Position numbers and translations under genes: made by a program. The notes under the pieces are model-generated. The model saw only the letters and a list, made by a program, of their open reading frames with translations. It was not told the origin of the DNA and did no database searches. From a phage, in NCBI GenBank assembly GCA_021146965.1, contig GCA_021146965.1_4847.1: a DNA stretch of 46,431 nt; one strand, 5' to 3'. Below, piece by piece: positions 1,515 through 45,554 of the stretch (position 1 is the stretch's first letter; every line of letters starts with the position of its first letter).

Positions 1515-1540
1515 AAGCCGCATGAAGCGGCTTTTAATTT
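1515..1540 (+). terminator. rho-independent terminator
   Basis: hairpin AAGCCGC-atga-GCGGCTT followed by T-rich run directly after stop of 1137..1511. Confidence 0.6.
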
Positions 1541-1616
1541 GGTGGACACGGACGAATTTGAACCTTCAATCAGCCGATTATTAGTCGGTTGCTTTAACCA
1601 ATTAAGCTACGCGTCC
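1540..1616 (-). tRNA. tRNA-like gene (77 nt, encoded CCA; anticodon loop CUAAUAA, anticodon reads AAU, identity uncertain)
   Basis: minus-strand sequence GGACGCG-TA-GCTT-AATTGGTTA-AAGC-A-ACCGA-CTAATAA-TCGGC-TGATT-GAAGG-TTCAAAT-TCGTC-CGTGTCC-A-CCA folds as cloverleaf: 7-bp acceptor stem (one G-U), 4-bp D stem with GG in D loop, T8/A9, U33, T-loop TTCAAAT; one mismatch each in anticodon and T stems. Confidence 0.45.
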
Positions 1617-2194: not shown

Positions 2195-2914
2195 ATGGCT
2201 ATTTGTGCAAATGATAAAGGCATTCTGGTCGGTCGCATGACCCGACTGTTCCTTGCTGAAGGGTGCGGCGACGCAGTTCCGGATGCAGGCGACTGGAAGT
2301 ATTTAGGCTCAACCACCAGTAAAGGCGTTGACTACTCGCCGCAGACCACTACGTCGGAAGCGGATACCGCTGGCGGCTTTGTTTCTACTCTCGTTACCAG
2401 CTCTGATATGACCATCAGTGCAGAGGTAGAAATCCGCAAGAATGACCCGAGCGATGAGTTTGGCTTCCATCGTCTTGTTGAGATTTACACCACTGAACTG
2501 AAGGCTCGCCGCCAGCCTTCCTTGTGGGTGCGTCAGGTGACTGGTGCAACTATCGTTACCGCGTATTGCAACATCACCAGCATCAGCTACGAAGGTGGCA
2601 CGAACGATATCGTTACTGGTAGCCTTGAGTTTAAGGTTTACGATTCTGACAGCGTTACCGTAGAAAGCCTTGAACCTCTGGCATTCACTACCTACCTGCA
2701 ATCAACTGGCACGGCCGGAAGCCCGTTAACCGTTGCTGTTGAAGGTGGCGTTGCTCCTTACACTTATGTATGGCGCAAAGATGGCGCAGTTGTTGATGGT
2801 GAGTCTGGCGCATCTCTGGCAAGCCCTACCGCTGGCGTGTATACCGTCACGGTAACTGATTCATCTACCGCCCCGGAAATTATCATCAGCACGGCGTGCA
2901 CGGTATCCCGATAA
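2195..2914 (+). CDS. major tail protein with C-terminal Ig-like (Big_2-type) domain
   Basis: 239-aa ORF with GGAGA RBS; C-terminal ~70 aa (TVAVEGGVAPYTYVWRKDGAVVDGESGASL...YTVTVTD) is a typical Ig-like decoration domain of siphovirus major tail proteins; followed by terminator. Confidence 0.6.
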   Translation: MAICANDKGILVGRMTRLFLAEGCGDAVPDAGDWKYLGSTTSKGVDYSPQTTTSEADTAGGFVSTLVTSSDMTISAEVEIRKNDPSDEFGFHRLVEIYTTELKARRQPSLWVRQVTGATIVTAYCNITSISYEGGTNDIVTGSLEFKVYDSDSVTVESLEPLAFTTYLQSTGTAGSPLTVAVEGGVAPYTYVWRKDGAVVDGESGASLASPTAGVYTVTVTDSSTAPEIIISTACTVSR

Positions 2915-2916
2915 AG

Positions 2917-2945
2917 AAAAGCCCCGAAAGGGGCTTTGTTTTATT
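2917..2945. terminator. rho-independent terminator (likely bidirectional)
   Basis: AAAAGCCCC-gaaa-GGGGCTTT hairpin followed by GTTTTATT; lies between convergent genes 2195..2914(+) and 2941..3141(-). Confidence 0.65.
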
Positions 2946-3141
2946 CTTGTGGTGGTTCTGGCAGATTGGCCCAGTGGGTAGCTGGAATTCCGTGACAGCA
3001 GTCCAATTCACTAACAAATATCTTGCTGCCAATATTATCGACAGCTTTACATGCCGCAGTTCTAACAACACCGCGAAATGCTGTAAGAACCATCGTTCCT
3101 TCTTCTGGCATTCGCTCACTACACTTAATCCACTGGCTCAT
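2941..3141 (-). CDS. DUF551-like protein
   Basis: 66-aa ORF MSQWIKCSERMPEEG...IPATHWANLPEPPQE matches the DUF551 pattern recalled from phage proteins; translationally coupled (ATGA) to upstream ORF. Confidence 0.5.
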   Translation of the reverse strand: MSQWIKCSERMPEEGTMVLTAFRGVVRTAACKAVDNIGSKIFVSELDCCHGIPATHWANLPEPPQE

Positions 3142-3281
3142 ATCACCTTGTCCTCATCAAAAATCACGCCAATAACGCGAAGTAAGTCTTTCGCCATGCG
3201 TTCCGCTTCCTCGTAGTCGTAACCTGCATCAACATACAAATCAGTGTAGAAAATCAGGTCAGCTTTTGTTTGTTCGTTCAT
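3138..3281 (-). CDS. small hypothetical protein (47 aa incl. stop)
   Basis: ORF MNEQTKADLIFYTDLYVDAGYDYEEAERMAKDLLRVIGVIFDEDKVI linking two flanking genes by ATGA overlaps at both ends; below ORF-track size cut-off. Confidence 0.4.
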   Translation of the reverse strand: MNEQTKADLIFYTDLYVDAGYDYEEAERMAKDLLRVIGVIFDEDKVI

Positions 3282-3472
3282 TTCTTGTCGCCACTGTTAA
3301 CTAATGCCCAAACAAGTGCCGCAACCCATCCAATAAAGCTCCACCCGACAAGAATATTCAGTACACAGATTGCTGTCGTGTTTGTGTGCTTGCGTTGCAA
3401 AGCCACAAATGATGGAAGAAGATAAACAAATATAACCAATCCAGCAAAAAGCAACAAAATAACAACATCCAT
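3278..3472 (-). CDS. superinfection-immunity-like small membrane protein
   Basis: 64-aa ORF with two hydrophobic helices; motif YLLPSFVALQRKHTNTTAICVLNILVGWSFIGWVAALVWAL resembles the Imm_superinfect family signature (LP..IA..R.H.N..aI...N...GWt.iGWv.AL.WA) from memory. Confidence 0.5.
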   Translation of the reverse strand: MDVVILLLFAGLVIFVYLLPSFVALQRKHTNTTAICVLNILVGWSFIGWVAALVWALVNSGDKK

Positions 3473-3585: not shown

Positions 3586-4323
3586 ATGAGCAATCGCACG
3601 CCACTAACAGAAATCGGGGAGATGCGCATCTCGCTTTCTGACAGGAGTTTTTTCTTTAAGCCATCATTCCGTGCCATGAATGAAATTGGCACGCCAAAAG
3701 AAATCGTCGAGGTATACGCTAAGCTCAATGGCATTGATTATATTGCGCCGTTGCAGCACGTCGAATACCTGCCATTTGGCGCGCAGATGCAGGTTATGAA
3801 GACCATCAGCAAACCTGTGTATGGTCGCCATGTACTGAGCGCAGCCTATATCGTCATGCAATCATGCTGTGAAGATGATATTTCTGTGCTGATTGGTGGA
3901 TGGAAGCCAACACCGCGCGGTGTGCGATACGTGCCGGGAGTAATGCCAATTGGCGGCACTGGACATTTGCCAGGTGGAACAGGTGGAATTATTGAGATTG
4001 CCCGCTCATTAATGGAGCACGGCATTATTGGCAAATCACCACTCAAAGTGCCTGAGCGTCTGGAAGAGCAGGGTAAGAAAACCACAAATGAGTTTCATGC
4101 GTCGCAATACATCATCTCAGCGCGCACGCATTTCGACATGACGCGTGATGAGGCCGAAAACCTGTCCATGACAGAGTTTCAGATGATGATTAAAAATAAA
4201 TATCCAGAGCCGAAAGGGTTAACGAAAGAAGAGCGCGCGGCAGAGTACGATCAGGCTAAAGCAGACCGTGAGCGCATGAAGGCACTGGCTGAACGCAAAG
4301 CGAAAAAAGCGAGGAATACATAA
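3586..4323 (+). CDS. putative tail assembly chaperone
   Basis: ORF immediately upstream of tape measure gene (1-nt overlap TAATG); start moved from 3577 to ATG 3586 for AGGA spacing; basic C-terminus; function assigned mainly by position. Confidence 0.45.
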   Translation: MSNRTPLTEIGEMRISLSDRSFFFKPSFRAMNEIGTPKEIVEVYAKLNGIDYIAPLQHVEYLPFGAQMQVMKTISKPVYGRHVLSAAYIVMQSCCEDDISVLIGGWKPTPRGVRYVPGVMPIGGTGHLPGGTGGIIEIARSLMEHGIIGKSPLKVPERLEEQGKKTTNEFHASQYIISARTHFDMTRDEAENLSMTEFQMMIKNKYPEPKGLTKEERAAEYDQAKADRERMKALAERKAKKARNT

Positions 4324-18713: not shown

Positions 18714-18742
18714 TTGATGTTTCTACGTCAGTTAGCTTATAC
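18714..18742 (+). promoter_or_regulatory. putative sigma70 promoter for primase gene
   Basis: TTGATG (18714-18719) - 17 nt - TTATAC (18737-18742); spacer contains TCTACGTCA motif copy. Confidence 0.4.
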
Positions 18743-18773
18743 TCAATCTACACCAACAATCAAGGGTAAATTT

Positions 18774-22694: not shown

Positions 22695-22723
22695 TTGACG
22701 TAGAATCACAACTGATGTAGATT
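22695..22723 (+). promoter_or_regulatory. putative rightward early promoter
   Basis: TTGACG (22695-22700) - 17 nt - TAGATT (22718-22723), 30 nt upstream of first rightward ORF. Confidence 0.55.
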
Positions 22724-27492: not shown

Positions 27493-27524
27493 TTGACCAA
27501 TCTACACCGAGCGCATAGTATAAT
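27493..27524 (+). promoter_or_regulatory. putative promoter for accessory cassette
   Basis: TTGACC (27493-27498) - 17 nt - TAGTAT (27516-27521), overlapping TATAAT 27519-27524; contains CAATCTACACC motif copy. Confidence 0.45.
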
Positions 27525-27552
27525 CTACATCAGGCTTATCGGAGATATCACT

Positions 27553-27759: not shown

Positions 27760-27763
27760 TGTG

Positions 27764-27958
27764 ATGATTAAGATGAGCAAGATGAGCAACAGAAGCAAGG
27801 TTTGCAGGATTGCTTTATTGCCAATCTTCCTGCCTGTGTGGTTGTTATGGGTTTTATTTTCTGGGGCGAGAAATCTATTTGAGTATCTTGAATTTTGTCA
27901 GGCAAAGGTTATACGAAAATTCCATAATGTCATTGATAAGTGGTTTCCGCTTGGTTGA
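27764..27958 (+). CDS. small membrane protein
   Basis: hydrophobic segment IALLPIFLPVWLLWVLF; ATG 27764 after GAGGGTG. Confidence 0.4.
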   Translation: MIKMSKMSNRSKVCRIALLPIFLPVWLLWVLFSGARNLFEYLEFCQAKVIRKFHNVIDKWFPLG

Positions 27959-28568: not shown

Positions 28569-30915
<2,347 letters not shown>

Positions 30916-30998
30916 GGGCTTGGTTTTGTCTTGTGAGCATACACAGAACAAATATTATTATCGCATAGCACAATATCTCTACGATGCTGAATATTGTT

Positions 30999-31643
30999 TT
31001 AATCATCCAGTTTCACGCCTGGAATTTTTCCTACTGCAATGGCTTCATAAATTAGCTTGGCCTCGTCCTCGCGCCTGTAATCTTGAGCTGCCATTTCTAA
31101 CACCGCGCAGATAGACTCAAGTACAGCCTCATGCTTCTTTTCTGCTTCTGTGCGTAGTGGTTTTAGGCTTTCCGGTACGAAGCAGCATGACCGACCAGCA
31201 CCACCTTCATCCCAATAGCAAACAGCCACATCGTTTCCGTCCGTTGTTGTCTTGTGCGCTACAACTTCCATTTCAGTGCCAGCATCAGGAATCCAGTCAT
31301 TGCAGTATCCTAACTTTGGATTAAAGAAGAATTCTACTTTTGCACCAACTGGCGGCAGGCCTTCTCCATTCCATGTCTGCTTTTGCAATGCTGCTAGCGC
31401 GGATTCATACAAGTCGCGAGTTATCATACAATAATCCGTGGCTACGCTGACATAGCGACCGGGTATGGGGATTGCCACGGTGTACTGAAATGGCACATCA
31501 AAACCATCGCTATATCCCTTTGGGAAACAAAAAGCAATTGTGATACTGTCACCATTGAAATCACCAACTCGACACCTCTCAGCACCATCAGGCCACCCAC
31601 CACGCTTAGGTAATTCTTGAACTAACAGGTCGATAAGTTTCAT
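30999..31643 (-). CDS. hypothetical protein
   Basis: 214-aa ORF on opposite strand to flanking morphogenesis and lysis genes; no recognised motif. Confidence 0.5.
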   Translation of the reverse strand: MKLIDLLVQELPKRGGWPDGAERCRVGDFNGDSITIAFCFPKGYSDGFDVPFQYTVAIPIPGRYVSVATDYCMITRDLYESALAALQKQTWNGEGLPPVGAKVEFFFNPKLGYCNDWIPDAGTEMEVVAHKTTTDGNDVAVCYWDEGGAGRSCCFVPESLKPLRTEAEKKHEAVLESICAVLEMAAQDYRREDEAKLIYEAIAVGKIPGVKLDD

Positions 31644-31942
31644 TTTGTTTCTCCCAATGCTTTATTAACCGCGGCACGTGCATTATCCAGAGCGCGACGC
31701 TTGCTTGATGTTGTCCAGCATTTTCCGGAGTGGTCGTCGTAGATTTCCAGAAGTTGCTGGAGTGCTGATAACAGGTCAGGAGATGCCGCTATTAGCCTTG
31801 CGTTATGCCATTGCTCGGTTTTATCACCGTTATATGTTGGAGTGAATGCAACCTCGACACCAATATCCGAGATAACATCTGGCGCGTTATCATCACCAAC
31901 AACAACTTCCCATTTTCCATGCGTACCTTTAAATTCTTTCAC
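31640..31942 (-). CDS. small protein, paralog of 45127..45468 (Ead/Ea22-like?)
   Basis: shares KEFKGT.G.W N-terminus and AA(S/A)P(D/E)LL.ALQ..L / NKALG C-terminal motifs with 45127..45468; probable GTG start 31942 preceded by GAGGT; 5' ends of the two paralogs share 19 identical nt. Confidence 0.5.
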   Translation of the reverse strand: MKEFKGTHGKWEVVVGDDNAPDVISDIGVEVAFTPTYNGDKTEQWHNARLIAASPDLLSALQQLLEIYDDHSGKCWTTSSKRRALDNARAAVNKALGETK

Positions 31943-31950
31943 ATCCAACC

Positions 31951-32094
31951 TCACTTAATATACTCAACAATCTCAACTTCACGCATCTGCACCAGGCCAA
32001 ATGGTGCAACCACCTTACCGCACGGACGGATTTTGATTTGCTCAAGGTTGAACACTCCGCAGCGTCCGTTTTCTTTGAATTTGACCATTACCAT
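31951..32094 (-). CDS. small hypothetical protein (47 aa)
   Basis: ATG ORF MVMVKFKENGRCGVFNLEQIKIRPCGK...; below track cut-off. Confidence 0.3.
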   Translation of the reverse strand: MVMVKFKENGRCGVFNLEQIKIRPCGKVVAPFGLVQMREVEIVEYIK

Positions 32095-32096
32095 AA

Positions 32097-32267
32097 TTAA
32101 TACCCGTTTTTCTTGGCTAATTGTTGCGCACGTTTCTTCGTGTACCCACAGGCCATCAGGCGCTTGACCTCGTTGCGGCGCCTTGCGAAATGGTACTCAC
32201 GAGAATTAAATGCACATTCGTTGCTAAAGTTAACATTACGTGGATTCATCTTCATCACCTCATTCAT
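32097..32267 (-). CDS. small basic hypothetical protein (56 aa)
   Basis: ORF MNEVMKMNPRNV...KRAQQLAKKNGY; internal ATG 32249 has better RBS spacing. Confidence 0.3.
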   Translation of the reverse strand: MNEVMKMNPRNVNFSNECAFNSREYHFARRRNEVKRLMACGYTKKRAQQLAKKNGY

Positions 32268-32353
32268 CACTTGATGTAGATACTATGCACCACCAACCAA
32301 TCTACGTCAACACCATTGTGATAGAATTAATCATTATTTGAACTGGAGGCAGA
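32268..32353. promoter_or_regulatory. divergent promoter/operator region with inverted motif pair
   Basis: TTGATGTAGAT (32271-32281) and inverted CAATCTACGTCAACA (32298-32312) between divergent operons; GGAGG RBS at 32345-32349. Confidence 0.45.
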
Positions 32354-32632
32354 ATGAAACTATCGCAACGAGGCGTGGAGACGTTTGGAATTACCGATGC
32401 CGTGAATATATCGCCTTACATCACTACCGAGACAACGCAGAATCAGTTCGACGCGCTGGCAAGTCTTGCCACCGACATTGGCATTTACGCGTTCCGTAAA
32501 TCAACGCTTCTGAAGAAGCACAACCTCCGCTGCTTCTCATGTGCTGTTGCGCATTTCATCGCGTGGGGCGAGAAGACTGGCGACAAAGCAAAACGCAAAG
32601 CTGAAAAAGAGGTTTACTGGTATGGCTATTAG
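32354..32632 (+). CDS. GH24 (P22 gp19-type) lysozyme-like protein lacking the catalytic N-terminal core (probable gene remnant)
   Basis: 92 aa; C-terminal part TTQNQFDALASLATDIGIYAFRKSTLLKKHNL matches the conserved Q.Q.DAL.SL..N.G..AF..ST.L..LN segment of P22-type lysozymes, but the E/D/T catalytic region and ~55 aa are absent; 3' end overlaps endolysin start. Confidence 0.5.
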   Translation: MKLSQRGVETFGITDAVNISPYITTETTQNQFDALASLATDIGIYAFRKSTLLKKHNLRCFSCAVAHFIAWGEKTGDKAKRKAEKEVYWYGY

Positions 32633-33086
32633 TAAAAACATGAAGGCGTTTCTGGATATGCTGGCGTACAGCGAGGGCACTGATAACGGGCGGCAGAAAA
32701 CCAATAATCATGGTTATGATGTGATTGTTGGCGGCTCACTGTTTACCGACTATTCCGACCACCCGCGCAAGCTGATTAGCCTGCCAAGGCTGGGCATTAA
32801 ATCCACCGCCGCCGGTCGCTATCAGGTACTGGCTAAGTTTTATGATGCGTACAAAAAGCAATTGCGTTTACCGGACTTCTCCCCCGCATCGCAGGACGCC
32901 ATTGCAATGCAGCTAATCCGTGAATGCAAGGCCACCGCTGATATTGAGGCTGGTCGCATTGCTGATGCCATCCATAAATGCCGCTCCCGCTGGGCCTCAT
33001 TGCCGGGCGCTGGGTATGGTCAGCATGAGCAGAAGCTGGATAAGCTGATTCAGGTATACAAAGAGGCTGGCGGAGCTGTGGCATGA
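32622..33086 (+). CDS. endolysin, lambda R-type lytic transglycosylase
   Basis: KAFLDMLAYSEGTDNGRQKTNNHGYDVIVGG.LFTDYSDHPRK...AGRYQ...WASLPGAGYGQ.E.K...L...YKEAGG aligns along its length with lambda R as recalled. Confidence 0.85.
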   Translation: MAISKNMKAFLDMLAYSEGTDNGRQKTNNHGYDVIVGGSLFTDYSDHPRKLISLPRLGIKSTAAGRYQVLAKFYDAYKKQLRLPDFSPASQDAIAMQLIRECKATADIEAGRIADAIHKCRSRWASLPGAGYGQHEQKLDKLIQVYKEAGGAVA

Positions 33087-34471: not shown

Positions 34472-34773
34472 TATTTAATCTCTCCGTTCAGTTCATTAAC
34501 AATTAACGTTGCATAGCCAGCAATATCTTTCCAGCTGTCATCATAAGTCGGGTCGCCATTCAGAATGCGCCCAATCTTGTGCTGAATCATGTCGAGCGCC
34601 TCGCGTTGACTTGGTGTGAGATTGCGCCAGCCATCTACCTTGCGCATCACATCTTTCAACTCCTGCATAATTTCAGCGCCGTCTTTGAATTTACCGTATC
34701 GACTACCGCGTTCGGTGATGAGTCGCTCTGTTGCGTCAGTATGGCGCTTATCGCCCGTGATTTGTGAACTCAT
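34471..34773 (-). CDS. hypothetical protein
   Basis: 100-aa ORF, ATG start. Confidence 0.45.
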   Translation of the reverse strand: MSSQITGDKRHTDATERLITERGSRYGKFKDGAEIMQELKDVMRKVDGWRNLTPSQREALDMIQHKIGRILNGDPTYDDSWKDIAGYATLIVNELNGEIK

Positions 34774-35260
34774 TGTGATGCATTCTCCTGAATTCTTTTA
34801 TTTTTGCTTCTGCTTCTCTTATGTCGGAAAAGTAACCAACTGTGAATCTTTTGCCATTTACTCCAACTCTTGCATGCCACTTGTTGTGCGATGAACTCCA
34901 GTTAACCCCCTTGATACCGCTAGTGTTGTTTTTGTTCATTGCTTTGTTGTGGCTATTCTCAAATTTGCTGGCCTCCCTTAAATTGCACGCCCTGTTGTCA
35001 TTGCGAATGCCATTAATGTGGTCAATCATTTCACTTGCTGGCGCGCCATGAATGCATATCCATGCCAATCTGTGAGCAAGAAAAGCCCTACCGCAAAGAA
35101 TTATTTGCACATATCCATCTGGCTTTAAGTAGCCAGCCACACTCCCTTTTTCTGCAATCCTATTCCTTGTCTTTAGCCATTTAAATTCCCCAGTTAGTGG
35201 ATTGTAGTAAAGGTAACTCAATATAAACTCCCTACTCGGCTCATCTCTCCTATGCCTCAT
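34748..35260 (-). CDS. HNH homing endonuclease with AP2 domain (paralog 3 of 4)
   Basis: IDHINGIRNDNRACNLREA plus AP2-like SGIKGVNWSSSHNKWHARVGVNGKRFTVGYF. Confidence 0.8.
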   Translation of the reverse strand: MRHRRDEPSREFILSYLYYNPLTGEFKWLKTRNRIAEKGSVAGYLKPDGYVQIILCGRAFLAHRLAWICIHGAPASEMIDHINGIRNDNRACNLREASKFENSHNKAMNKNNTSGIKGVNWSSSHNKWHARVGVNGKRFTVGYFSDIREAEAKIKEFRRMHHNEFTNHGR

Positions 35261-35490: not shown

Positions 35491-35535
35491 TTGACGTTTC
35501 TACATCATTTAGTCAATACTTGTTGACGTAGATTG
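35491..35535. promoter_or_regulatory. divergent promoter/operator region with tandem TTGACG... motif copies
   Basis: TTGACGTTTCTACATCA (35491-35507) and TGTTGACGTAGATTG (35521-35535) between divergent genes 35257..35463(-) and 35563..35760(+). Confidence 0.45.
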
Positions 35536-41529: not shown

Positions 41530-41556
41530 AAAAGGGGGTTTATCCCCCTTCTTTGT
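41530..41556. terminator. bidirectional rho-independent terminator
   Basis: AAGGGGG-tttat-CCCCCTT hairpin flanked by A-run and T-rich tract, between convergent MCP (+) and 41540..42346 (-). Confidence 0.6.
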
Positions 41557-42346
41557 ATCTAATTTCACCGTAAACCATGTACTGTAACATGTAACAAAAC
41601 TCCCATTCCGTCATATCTGTCCGTAGCCACTTCCTGTTCTTCTTGTAATTGTACTCCGCCAGCTCCGCTTTTAAATTGTGAAGAGCATTAACCAGTTCTG
41701 GATATACGAGGTTATTCTTAACAAACCAGTTGACAGATAAAATATGGTCAATATGCCAATTATTGCGGTCATCAAAACTCATCCATGGAAGCATGGTTGA
41801 TTTTATATGCTTAATGAAATCATCCTTTGAGTACCCGAGAACATCATCTACTGTTCTATCAAGCGCAATGTCAGATACTCTCATATCAAGCCGCTCAAGC
41901 ATTTTTCTTAGGAACACGTGGTGTGGGTGCTTCTTTTGCCATTGCCTGACATTATCCAGAGCCTTTTTATTGCCTTTCTCTGAGTAGTACCATCTGCGAT
42001 AAGCTTCCCTTTTCTTTTGTAAAAACTCCTCCTTTTTCTCTGGATTCTCGTTAAGCCTTTGCATCTTCCTTTTGTTGTACTCCTGTTGTGATTGTTTTCT
42101 TTTCTTTTTGTACTCGCTGTTATCCTTGTTTTTCTGCCACTCCTTTTTTCTGTACTCACTTTCCTTGCGTTTGCGCTCCTCTGTTGTTCTCTGCTTCCTT
42201 GTTCTTTCGTATACGCAATGCTTGCATCCGCCTGATGCTGTAAAAAACACAGTTCCACCACATACAGAGCATGGAATCCATTCACACACAAATTGCTTCA
42301 GTCCAGCAACCCTTGCTTCTTGCGCGGCTTCTTTTCTTGTTTTCAT
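41540..42346 (-). CDS. zinc-ribbon protein with Lys/Glu-rich low-complexity region and C-terminal HNH-like motif
   Basis: N-terminal CEWIPCSVCGG...CKHC zinc ribbon; ~100-aa K/R/E-rich segment; C-terminal NWHIDHILSVN...NALHNL reminiscent of HNH core; AGGAG RBS. Confidence 0.5.
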   Translation of the reverse strand: MKTRKEAAQEARVAGLKQFVCEWIPCSVCGGTVFFTASGGCKHCVYERTRKQRTTEERKRKESEYRKKEWQKNKDNSEYKKKRKQSQQEYNKRKMQRLNENPEKKEEFLQKKREAYRRWYYSEKGNKKALDNVRQWQKKHPHHVFLRKMLERLDMRVSDIALDRTVDDVLGYSKDDFIKHIKSTMLPWMSFDDRNNWHIDHILSVNWFVKNNLVYPELVNALHNLKAELAEYNYKKNRKWLRTDMTEWEFCYMLQYMVYGEIRYKEGG

Positions 42347-44317: not shown

Positions 44318-45127
44318 TCACATCTTCTCCAGAATTGCCATAACCTCGTGAATGTCAGCAACAGGAATCTGAATAAATTCCTCATCCTCTGCCACCACAT
44401 GACCAGCAGGGAGAATTACATGGTCAGCTGGCTTCAGTAACTCAATCAGGCGGTCTACTGGCTTAATCTTTTTCGACTTCAGCACTTTGGCTGTGACCTT
44501 ATCCTTGCCTTGCGCCTTCGCTTCTTCGACCGCTTCGTCGATAACTTTTACCGCATCATCTCCATGTTCGCGCGTTACCGCTACGGCATTTGCATAGCTG
44601 ATCTGTCCGGCACTGATTCGCGCTTTTACTTCCGCAGGCACATCACCCAACGACAGGTGCATTTGCACGTCAGATACTGAGCGGCCTACCTTCTTGGCGA
44701 TTTCCTCGTTTGTCCAGCCAAAACCTTTCAGACGCGTGTAAGCCTTTGCGCGTTCAAACGGGTCAAGTTGCTTGCCCTGACTTGATGACACCATGAATGC
44801 GATTTTGTCAGCCTCGTCGCCAGTAAAATCCTTACACTCAATGCGAACGATTGGTGCGCCGCGCTCAATGGCTCGCAATGCGCCGAGGTAGCGATGCTGC
44901 CCATCAAGAATGCGGATACCTTTATCGTCAGGAATAACTGTTAATGCTGGCAATGGCTGACCTGACTCCCAGCACTGCGCGAAATATTCCACATGCTGCT
45001 CATCTGCTTCACGGATGTTGTATCCCGGCTCCAGATAGATTTGCTCTACTGGCACGAGGTAGGTTTTGTTAACAGCGATACCGTTACGCGTTTCTTTGTC
45101 TGAATAGATTTTGCTTAGTGTTTTCAT
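44318..45127 (-). CDS. ParB-like protein (ParB/Srx N-terminal domain plus HTH)
   Basis: ILDGQHRYLGALRAIERGAPIVRI matches ParB/sulfiredoxin-fold core; central TNEEIAKKVGRSVSDVQMHLSL resembles ParB HTH. Confidence 0.6.
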   Translation of the reverse strand: MKTLSKIYSDKETRNGIAVNKTYLVPVEQIYLEPGYNIREADEQHVEYFAQCWESGQPLPALTVIPDDKGIRILDGQHRYLGALRAIERGAPIVRIECKDFTGDEADKIAFMVSSSQGKQLDPFERAKAYTRLKGFGWTNEEIAKKVGRSVSDVQMHLSLGDVPAEVKARISAGQISYANAVAVTREHGDDAVKVIDEAVEEAKAQGKDKVTAKVLKSKKIKPVDRLIELLKPADHVILPAGHVVAEDEEFIQIPVADIHEVMAILEKM

Positions 45128-45468
45128 TATTTCTTTCCTAATGCTTTATTGATAGATTCTTCAGCTAACAGCAATTCATCTGGGTATTGTTCATTCCAGT
45201 TTTGTTTGTATGCCTTGCTAAGCATTTTTTGCAGAGCTTCAAGCAACTCAGGTGCTGCTGCCATTAAATTAAAGTCATGCTCAACACTGCTATCAATCTC
45301 CCAATGCATCCCGTTGTATTTAGCACCCTTGCTAGAGAAGGCAATATTTCTGTCATCGTCGTGGTGACAGCCAGGTGTGTCATCAGTTCGACAAGACGGG
45401 TAAATAGCTGCGCAACCCCCGCGAATGTCTGCGACCCACGGCCCGGGCGTACCTTTAAATTCTTTCAT
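45127..45468 (-). CDS. small protein, paralog of 31640..31942 (Ead/Ea22-like?)
   Basis: MKEFKGTPGPW N-terminus and AAAPELLEALQKML / NKALG C-terminal motifs shared with 31640..31942; start ATG 45468 with GAGGTG RBS. Confidence 0.5.
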   Translation of the reverse strand: MKEFKGTPGPWVADIRGGCAAIYPSCRTDDTPGCHHDDDRNIAFSSKGAKYNGMHWEIDSSVEHDFNLMAAAPELLEALQKMLSKAYKQNWNEQYPDELLLAEESINKALGKK

Positions 45469-45492
45469 TTTCATCACCTCTAATATTTATTG

Positions 45493-45554
45493 TTGTTTCT
45501 ACGTCACTAACTATAAACGCACCACCAATCTACGTCAACAGGAATATGCTAAAA
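45493..45554. promoter_or_regulatory. divergent promoter/operator region with two motif copies
   Basis: TTTCTACGTCA (45497-45507) and CAATCTACGTCAACA (45526-45540); on minus strand these give TTGACG - 17 nt - TATAGT; TAAAAT at 45549-45554 for rightward genes. Confidence 0.45.

Follow-up and report, generated by a model that had tools for sequence, protein, structure and literature searches.

A leftward four-gene cassette in a conserved slot between the head-morphogenesis and lysis genes of Skatevirus-like phages, a candidate host-interaction unit

In the lambdoid phages HK97 and HK022, morons are independent promoter-gene-terminator units that lie between late genes, and in MuF polymorphic toxin/immunity pairs an extra C-terminal toxin domain on the MuF protein is accompanied by a co-oriented immunity gene directly downstream. 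Here, a cassette of four leftward genes (refined span 30999-32249) was analyzed in a 46,431-nucleotide stretch of phage DNA (GenBank assembly GCA_021146965.1, contig GCA_021146965.1_4847.1), referred to below as the window, whose source is a siphophage of the Skatevirus/Buchananvirus/Swiduovirus cluster. We lean, a little beyond an even chance, toward reading it as an independently transcribed, probably early and dispensable host-interaction cassette that occupies a conserved slot in Skatevirus-like phages. Like the lambdoid morons, it is small and self-contained, with a promoter-like site and a terminator to itself, it lies between morphogenesis and lysis genes, and its contents are dispensable and variable. 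In contrast to the morons, it is counter-oriented and has four genes, its place goes back to the ancestor of the phage group and is not sporadic, and its composition equals that of its surroundings, with no lysogeny features in the parts of the phage examined. A MuF toxin/immunity pairing was rejected, as the 328-residue MuF protein of the window contains only the Phage_Mu_F domain and the neighboring gene is convergent. The cassette also resembles the non-essential early-left genes of P22 and lambda (ea, orf78/orf87, and the ral region) in its small accessory proteins with mosaic distribution and in a similarity to orf78, and a temperate-type contig carries the same pair of genes, encoding a PF27050 protein and a mosaic protein, near AlpA-like and HNH genes. 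It differs from them in having no detectable relation to P22 EaD and in lying inside the late region of a virulent siphophage. In Klebsiella phage KpV52 (Jedunavirus), a counter-oriented gp06-gp05-gp04 cassette has the same gene order, with the PF27050-type gp06 (E 3.2e-20) followed by the overlapping mosaic gp05 (E 7.3e-28) beside Mu-F, and carries an annotated promoter (TTGACG-17-TAGAGT) and terminator; unlike the cassette of the window, it is placed between portal and Mu-F, lacks the 47-residue gene, and has a different third gene. About 150 published genomes already contain the cassette, annotated as "hypothetical proteins", and part of it has been shown to be removable.

Four minus-strand open reading frames (ORFs) occupy 30999-32270 (Table 1), and these, together with PHROG and tblastn matches, bear out the earlier note on this DNA, which had placed a leftward four-gene cassette between a head-morphogenesis gene and the lysis cluster. 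Three of the four proteins match PHROG families (E 5.7e-61, 4.4e-21, and 5.1e-36 for the 214-, 100-, and 47-residue proteins, respectively); the 50-residue product of the first gene has no PHROG match but has tblastn homologs (2e-11). The genes are tightly packed, with a 2-nt gap between the stop of the first gene and the start of the 47-residue gene, a GAGG Shine-Dalgarno sequence overlapping the stop codon of the 47-residue gene, and an ATGA overlap joining the stop of the 100-residue gene to the start of the 214-residue gene. The start of the 100-residue gene is most likely the GTG at 31942, which yields the MKEFKG... start common to all relatives. For the first gene, the ATG at 32249 is the most likely start, giving 50 residues; a GAGGTG Shine-Dalgarno sequence lies 8 nt 5' of this codon, and homolog alignments start at residue 6-7 of the 56-residue reading. 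At 32267, the cassette end reported earlier, there is another in-frame ATG, six codons farther upstream. No membrane segment is present in any of the four proteins, and scans against Pfam, NCBIfam, and PADLOC matched none of them; for the PADLOC-DB defence models this holds at E up to 1. Rfam and tRNA scans likewise gave no match within the cassette.

Table 1. Features of the cassette, its control region, and related loci (window coordinates; residue numbers where indicated)
Feature	Coordinates	Strand	Description
Mu-F-type head-morphogenesis gene	29929-30915	+	328 aa (amino acids); Pfam Phage_Mu_F (residues 182-292), phrog_758
Predicted bidirectional intrinsic-terminator hairpin	30901-30921	both	AAGCCCTC-loop-GAGGGCTT, T-runs on both strands
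214-aa mosaic protein	30999-31643	-	phrog_7798
214-aa protein, N-terminal part	residues ~22-75 (variable beta module)		conserved helix MKLIDLLVQELPKRGGWP, variable beta module, linker YESALAA..WNGEGLPPVG
214-aa protein, C-terminal part	residues ~100-162 (barrel)		Tudor/SH3-like barrel, RTEAEKK motif, variable helix, highly conserved C-terminus IYEAIAVGKIPGVKLDD
100-aa PF27050 protein	31640-31942	-	phrog_1273; mechanical ORF 31640-31954, 104 aa
47-aa basic protein	31951-32094	-	phrog_21280
50-aa very basic protein	32097-32249	-	tblastn homologs; ORF of 56/57 aa to 32267/32270
Motif copy	32271-32281	+	TTGATGTAGAT; invariant in 8 related phages
Candidate leftward sigma-70-like promoter	32282-32310	-	-35 TTGACG (32310-32305), 17-nt spacer, -10 CATAGT (32287-32282)
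Motif copy, inverted partner	32310-32300	-	TTGACGTAGAT; motif scan
Candidate extended -10 for rightward lysis genes	32319-32327	+	TGaTAGAAT; read from sequence
Lysis cluster	from 32354	+	lysozyme-like ORF, lambda-R-type transglycosylase, holin, Rz spanin; Pfam/PHROG scans
Paralog of 100-aa gene	45127-45477	-	blastp E 6.6e-7; phrog_1273 E 9e-19

The independent expression supposed in the earlier note is in keeping with the layout of the cassette, which looks like an opposite-strand transcription unit of its own: the promoter-like site is kept in relatives, and a U-run follows the terminator hairpin. Its expression would be independent of the surrounding genes and probably early. The hairpin, which overlaps the stop codon of the Mu-F gene, is predicted to terminate transcripts from both sides, that of the head genes reading rightward and that of the cassette reading leftward. 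On the cassette strand, the terminator RNA folds at -19.4 kcal/mol (z -2.84) ahead of the U-run UUUUUGUU, so that the terminator of its own expected for a moron-type unit is present. In independently annotated homologous cassettes, a terminator is marked at the equivalent position in the Skate record and a terminator and a promoter in KpV52. At the other end, the 86-bp divergent control region (32268-32353) contains two motif copies and an extended -10 element, and the inverted arrangement of the motif pair that had been reported there was recovered. The leftward promoter candidate is a 9/12 match in the promoter scan and its TTGACG-17-CATAGT elements are kept in seven of eight relatives; its -35 falls within the minus-strand motif copy, and the predicted leftward transcript start falls on the plus-strand copy. 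The putative lysis promoter has no recognizable -35, the position being occupied by the motif copy at 32300-32310, and its extended -10 is invariant in seven relatives with one substitution in BS5. A motif copy and an extended -10 also stand upstream of the lysozyme gene in the distant Vibrio phage pYD38-A, as TGATAAAAT. The intergenic region is almost invariant in eight related phages although the adjacent first gene varies. Because the motif copies overlap the leftward -35 and transcript start, and one of them replaces the lysis -35, a regulator could control both directions.

The motif, TTGAYGTAGAT, is enriched in the window, with 12 sites at one mismatch or fewer against 1.65 expected and none of 100 shuffles equaling that number. 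Its core, GRYGTAGAW, has 15 sites against 2.5 expected, and the full form is TGTTGACGTAGATTG. Motif pairs head transcription units on both strands (18721/18746, 22697/22714, 35498/35525, and 45497/45528, in addition to 32271-32310), with varying spacing and orientation over the spans 18721-18756, 22697-22722, 27500-27533, 32271-32310, 35498-35533, and 45497-45538. An exact motif, TTGACGTAGATTG, is found in the equivalent intergenic region of pYD38-A (locus L012, 1495-1535). The copies overlap promoter-like hexamers at differing positions (-35, spacer, and transcript start), and an operator therefore fits at least as well as a promoter element; the motif appears to be either an operator for a conserved phage regulator or a promoter element of an unusual kind. 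A role as a marker of early promoters was rejected, since rightward late-looking units are also headed by the motif. A literature search on the motif returned nothing relevant.

The description of the cassette as inserted is not borne out, since this placement goes back to the ancestor of the phage group and the cassette does not differ in G+C content (0.45-0.48) from the remainder of the window; a recent horizontal insertion was rejected on composition and conservation. The position is shared by about 150 published Skatevirus-like genomes and by distant Roufvirus relatives, among them pYD38-A, which has a 284-residue mosaic gene at the same place. Megablast of the region matched 154 phage records, mostly of Salmonella and Escherichia phages and none of them with 80% coverage of the region, and the closest whole-genome relatives of the window are the Escherichia coli phages HC6 and 6947 (~96% identity across 25 kb). 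Placement between Mu-F and the lysis genes was found in Skate, Sa179lw, ZK22, HC6, swi2, BS5, Bas80, and seszw. The common plan comprises one or more variable first genes, the 47-residue gene (80-94% identity within this plan), the PF27050 gene, optional inserts, and a mosaic gene of 190-280 residues. The first slot is filled by unrelated genes in different phages, and HNH endonuclease genes occur within the cassettes of Bas80, LPST10, and Sf11.

A wider view was obtained from 67 IMG/VR loci that encode a relative of the 214-residue protein. Mu-F and portal are convergent to the mosaic gene, with the mosaic gene directly beside Mu-F, in 46 of the 67, and the PF27050 and 47-residue genes lie directly upstream of it in about 27. 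In roughly 21 loci the mosaic gene resides in other phage types, where a PF27050 gene lies within 4 kb in nine cases and directly or almost directly upstream in three; genes typical of early regions are among the neighbors there, encoding SSB, a KilA-N protein, HNH endonucleases, an AlpA-like protein, and an ATPase. Other leftward units of the window encode ParB-like, RusA-like, HNH, and EndoVII-like proteins. The content of these leftward units, the SSB, KilA-N, HNH, and AlpA-like neighbors, and the resemblance to orf78 point to a context that is probably of the early type. HNH/EndoVII-type endonuclease genes are dispersed through small leftward units of the window (34748-35260 and 41540-42346, both on the minus strand) and occur within the cassettes of relatives (locus L007, 2195-2680; LPST10 locus sequence, 2894-3373), and these genes may drive the mosaicism. 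Between the genes for terminase and portal, a small membrane-type ORF (27761-27958, plus strand) has homologs in seszw gene 69 (E 1e-10) and in VPRG_00031 of pYD38-A; as each of these is the last gene of a counter-oriented cassette, it appears that genes of the cassette change place within the genome.

The two distal genes are dispensable in relatives. The seszw cassette comprises genes 69-74, with the numbering inferred from the locus tags of the deposited mutant genomes; the orthologs of the 214-residue, PF27050, and 47-residue genes are genes 70, 72, and 73, respectively. A genome-reduction study of seszw reports that a fragment made up of genes 69-71 was lost (PMC9825161). Many deposited viable seszw mutants have lost about 1.4 kb of the cassette region. 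In the viable mutant seszw_300S (36,991 bp) genes 69-72 are gone and genes 73 and 74 are kept, and the smallest mutant (36,655 bp) retains the 47-residue gene and the control region. A 36-codon ORF follows the 47-residue gene in LPST10 and at three further loci; it fuses a PF27050-type start to the last ~18 mosaic residues, and a 26-residue remnant is all that is left of the mosaic gene there. This ORF is the scar of a natural deletion that removed both the PF27050 and the mosaic gene; in LPST10 (locus sequence 3971-4081) it starts with MTKREVYQLF and ends with the mosaic terminus IIYDAIAAGKIPGVKLDD. The engineered mutants and the natural variants that lack both distal genes indicate that the 214- and 100-residue genes are accessory, and on this evidence from relatives neither is required for plaque formation.

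The 214-residue protein is a full-length member of phrog_7798 (residues 1-214 on profile positions 1-221 of 221). It is soluble and acidic, with an isoelectric point (pI) of 4.67 (family median 4.9), which is not the extreme acidity of DNA mimics. In the family alignment the N-terminus (MKLIDLLVQELPKRGGWP) is near-invariant, whereas residues ~22-75 are unalignable and fall into discrete alternative types. The linker YESALAASQKPAWNGEGLPPVG is conserved, and in some members the beta domain that follows gives way to sequence unrelated to it. The RTEAERKR motif is again conserved, the helix after it varies, and the C-terminus IYDAIAAGKIPGVKLDD is near-invariant. One N-terminal module is paired with at least six different middle domains, indicating independent assortment of the modules. 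In the DNA, the boundaries are sharp: islands of conservation (30999-31061, 31345-31409, 31579-31657, 31640-31794, 31921-32098, and from 32240 onward) are separated by segments with no detectable similarity. The first ~18 and last ~17 residues (window 31579-31643 and 30999-31061 at the two ends of the gene) are kept across enterobacterial, Vibrio, and temperate-phage members, with the interior swapped, which suggests that the conserved termini may be short docking motifs for a conserved partner. The middle barrel resembles Tudor/SH3-like small beta-barrels (6if4_A, 3lgf_A, and 6hq9_B) at only 10-13% sequence identity; this fold is generic and occurs in many binding proteins, and relatives hold several sequence-unrelated segments at the barrel position. 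The family is large, with 2,734 clusters at 90% identity in a first search and 1,555 clusters at 50% identity in a profile search of representatives (E up to 0.001). None of the family clusters carries a Pfam domain or a name, and longer members show no informative fusions. Searches of PDB sequences with the 214- and 104-residue proteins gave no match, and a BFVD structure search returned only uncharacterized viral proteins. Homology of the 214-residue protein to a known structural component, which the earlier note had named as the observation that would speak against its proposal, was looked for and not found; Pfam, PHROG, NCBIfam, PDB, and structure searches showed no structural, chaperone, or lysis homology for the cassette proteins.

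The 100-residue protein opens with the conserved sequence MKEFKGT.G.W; its beta half is variable, and the three helices of its C-terminal half (NARLIAASPDLLSALQQLLEIYDD...NKALGE) are conserved. It belongs to phrog_1273/PF27050 (phrog_1273 E 4.4e-21, and 9e-19 for the paralog), and PF27050.1 was found in all 120 homologs listed; a literature search on PF27050 yielded nothing relevant. The AF2 (AlphaFold2) model, with a pLDDT (predicted local distance difference test) score of 87.4, shows a three-strand meander and three helices, and has no informative structural neighbor. The earlier note had called the gene an Ead-like paralog. The paralogy is real, a second gene at 45127-45477 matching by blastp and belonging to the same PHROG, whereas the label Ead-like did not hold up: Pfam at E up to 10 assigned no family to the 100/104-residue protein, the paralog, or three orthologs, and a relation to P22 EaD was rejected, as hhalign of family alignment A3 gives a probability of 0.4%. 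Ead/Ea22-like proteins make up the Pfam family Ead_Ea22 (PF13935), with P22 EaD as prototype. The label occurs only as an annotation in phage ZK22. The family profile does resemble P22 orf78 (hhalign probability 94%, E 1.3e-7), a gene of the early-left operon between ral and orf87, and the similarity lies in the C-terminal helical half. The paralog is the first gene of a leftward unit headed by motif copies at 45528-45538 and 45497-45505. Over its N-terminal 74 residues it shares 89% identity with the N-half of the BS5 cassette gene, which indicates that modules move between the two PF27050 loci.

The two small proteins are both basic. The 47-residue protein (pI 9.2) is encoded by the most conserved cassette gene, found in 146 phage records, mostly at 90-98% identity and including the smallest seszw mutant; it was found only within the Salmonella/Escherichia/Shigella group, and no homolog was detected in the pYD38-A-type Roufvirus loci. 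The 50-residue protein (pI 10.4), which occupies the promoter-proximal variable slot and lacks Pfam and NCBIfam as well as PHROG matches, is a rare allele with 15 tblastn records (best 57-61% identity) and its best relatives in 9NA-like (Nonanavirus/Sashavirus) phages.

Beyond the cassette, the window has tandem endolysin-type genes at 32354-32632 and 32622-33086, which overlap by 11 nt. The first encodes a 92-residue lysozyme-like ORF that matches positions 55-114 only of the 125-position Phage_lysozyme profile, and the second is the lambda-R-type transglycosylase; HC6 has a single 146-residue "lysozyme R" at this position instead of the tandem pair. The sole tRNA gene of the window (1540-1616, minus strand) is called tRNA-Ile with anticodon AAT by ARAGORN and is confirmed as a tRNA by Rfam (56 bits); the AAT anticodon, if unmodified, is unusual.

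In the sequence of events that we propose, host RNA polymerase would start at the sigma-70-type promoter in the 86-bp divergent region, and transcription would proceed leftward through the four translationally coupled genes to stop at the hairpin shared with the Mu-F gene. The products would be small soluble non-virion proteins of 50, 47, 100 (PF27050), and 214 (mosaic) residues. In the mosaic protein, the conserved N- and C-terminal helices would frame exchangeable beta modules, one of them the Tudor/SH3-like barrel. The cassette proteins would most likely be early binders of host or competitor components, acting in takeover or counter-defence rather than in head assembly or lysis. The conserved DNA islands appear to be recombination joints that give rise to differing module combinations among phages, and a phage regulator bound at the motif copies could switch off the cassette and also affect expression of the lysis genes. 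A more specific form of this proposal, which we regard as unlikely, is that the PF27050 and mosaic proteins make up a two-component, combinatorially diversified counter-defence or host-targeting system. In that case the mosaic termini (MKLIDLLV.ELPKRGGWP and IYDAIAAGKIPGVKL) would dock on a conserved partner from either host or phage, each of the exchangeable beta modules, the Tudor/SH3-like barrel among them, would recognize a different variable host protein, and shuffling at the DNA joints together with exchange with the 45127-45477 locus would track host diversity.

Four other explanations each have some support, less than the host-interaction reading. The cassette could serve morphogenesis or lysis, its proteins being non-essential helpers of Mu-F, portal, or head assembly or regulators of lysis timing. 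The mosaic gene is convergent to and beside Mu-F in most of the IMG/VR loci, the KpV52 cassette has moved to a place between portal and Mu-F, and the control region is common to the cassette and the lysis genes. We nevertheless consider such a role quite improbable, as the cassette is read from the other strand and has a promoter-like site and a terminator to itself, its proteins have no structural, chaperone, or lysis homology and no membrane segment, mutants and natural variants without the two distal genes are viable, and unrelated phages carry the same families in early regions that are distant from head genes. About equally doubtful is the idea that the variable genes are largely selfish or neutral cargo that persists by hitch-hiking at a recombination or homing hot spot. 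The HNH genes inserted in the Bas80, LPST10, and Sf11 cassettes, the sharp mosaic boundaries, the unrelated genes in the first slot, and gene loss without loss of viability would all be expected of such cargo. However, conservation of the mosaic termini reaches from enterobacterial to Vibrio phages and into temperate-phage contexts, the ORFs are intact in >1,500 clusters at 50% identity, and the gene pair is kept across genera, and this retention argues for purifying selection on function.

An action against other phages rather than the host, by superinfection exclusion or in inter-phage competition, would suit the moron-like architecture and a module diversification typical of arms races, and P22 exclusion genes do reside in comparable independently transcribed units. 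Many exclusion proteins have membrane segments, however, and the four cassette proteins have none; there is no PADLOC defence match, and a virulent phage has only a short window for exclusion, which leaves this explanation with a small probability. The last alternative, that the 47- or 50-residue protein is a motif-binding regulator and the cassette a regulatory unit for phage transcription, is very unlikely. Both small proteins are basic, the 47-residue gene is kept wherever examined, and motif copies overlap the cassette's own promoter. Yet the 50-residue protein is confined to 15 records and the 47-residue protein to the Salmonella/Escherichia/Shigella group, and no homolog of the latter was detected in pYD38-A-type loci while pYD38-A has the exact motif. 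Either protein was set aside as the regulator, its distribution being unlike that of the motif.

Several observations weigh against the host-interaction reading itself. No match to a known counter-defence or takeover protein was found, and PADLOC gave nothing; for Ocr, Ard, Ral, and similar counter-defence proteins, no sequence or fold match was seen in the general libraries searched, which did not include a dedicated anti-defence set. The promoter scan as a whole was not above chance (10 sites against 8.3 expected). In seszw, 18 bp of the control region (window 32282-32299) are missing in the wild type (Seszw_1 locus sequence, 577-663) as well as in the mutants, so that TTGACG abuts TATAGT and the motif copies are fused; the simple -35/-10 reading does not fit this arrangement. 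The motif is found in late-looking surroundings as well, with the pair at 27500/27523 just 3' of the terminase gene and the copies at 22697 and 35525 heading rightward units. The cassette always adjoins the Mu-F gene, including in Jedunavirus, which leaves room for a link to head assembly. Finally, the 47-residue gene is absent from no genome whose cassette position was examined, and it may have a different, possibly important role.

If the host-interaction reading is correct, the slot would be a catalog of host-interaction modules in common Salmonella, E. coli, and Klebsiella phages of interest for therapy and biocontrol. The two distal genes are removable, providing space for engineering, whereas the retention of the 47-residue gene and the control region in the smallest seszw mutant indicates that these should be handled with more care. 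The mosaic family, with >1,500 clusters at 50% identity and no Pfam domain or named relative, is a reasonable target for accessory-gene screens, and the control region common to the cassette and the lysis genes, where a conserved motif pair stands beside a lysis promoter without a -35, would offer a handle on transcription timing in these phages.

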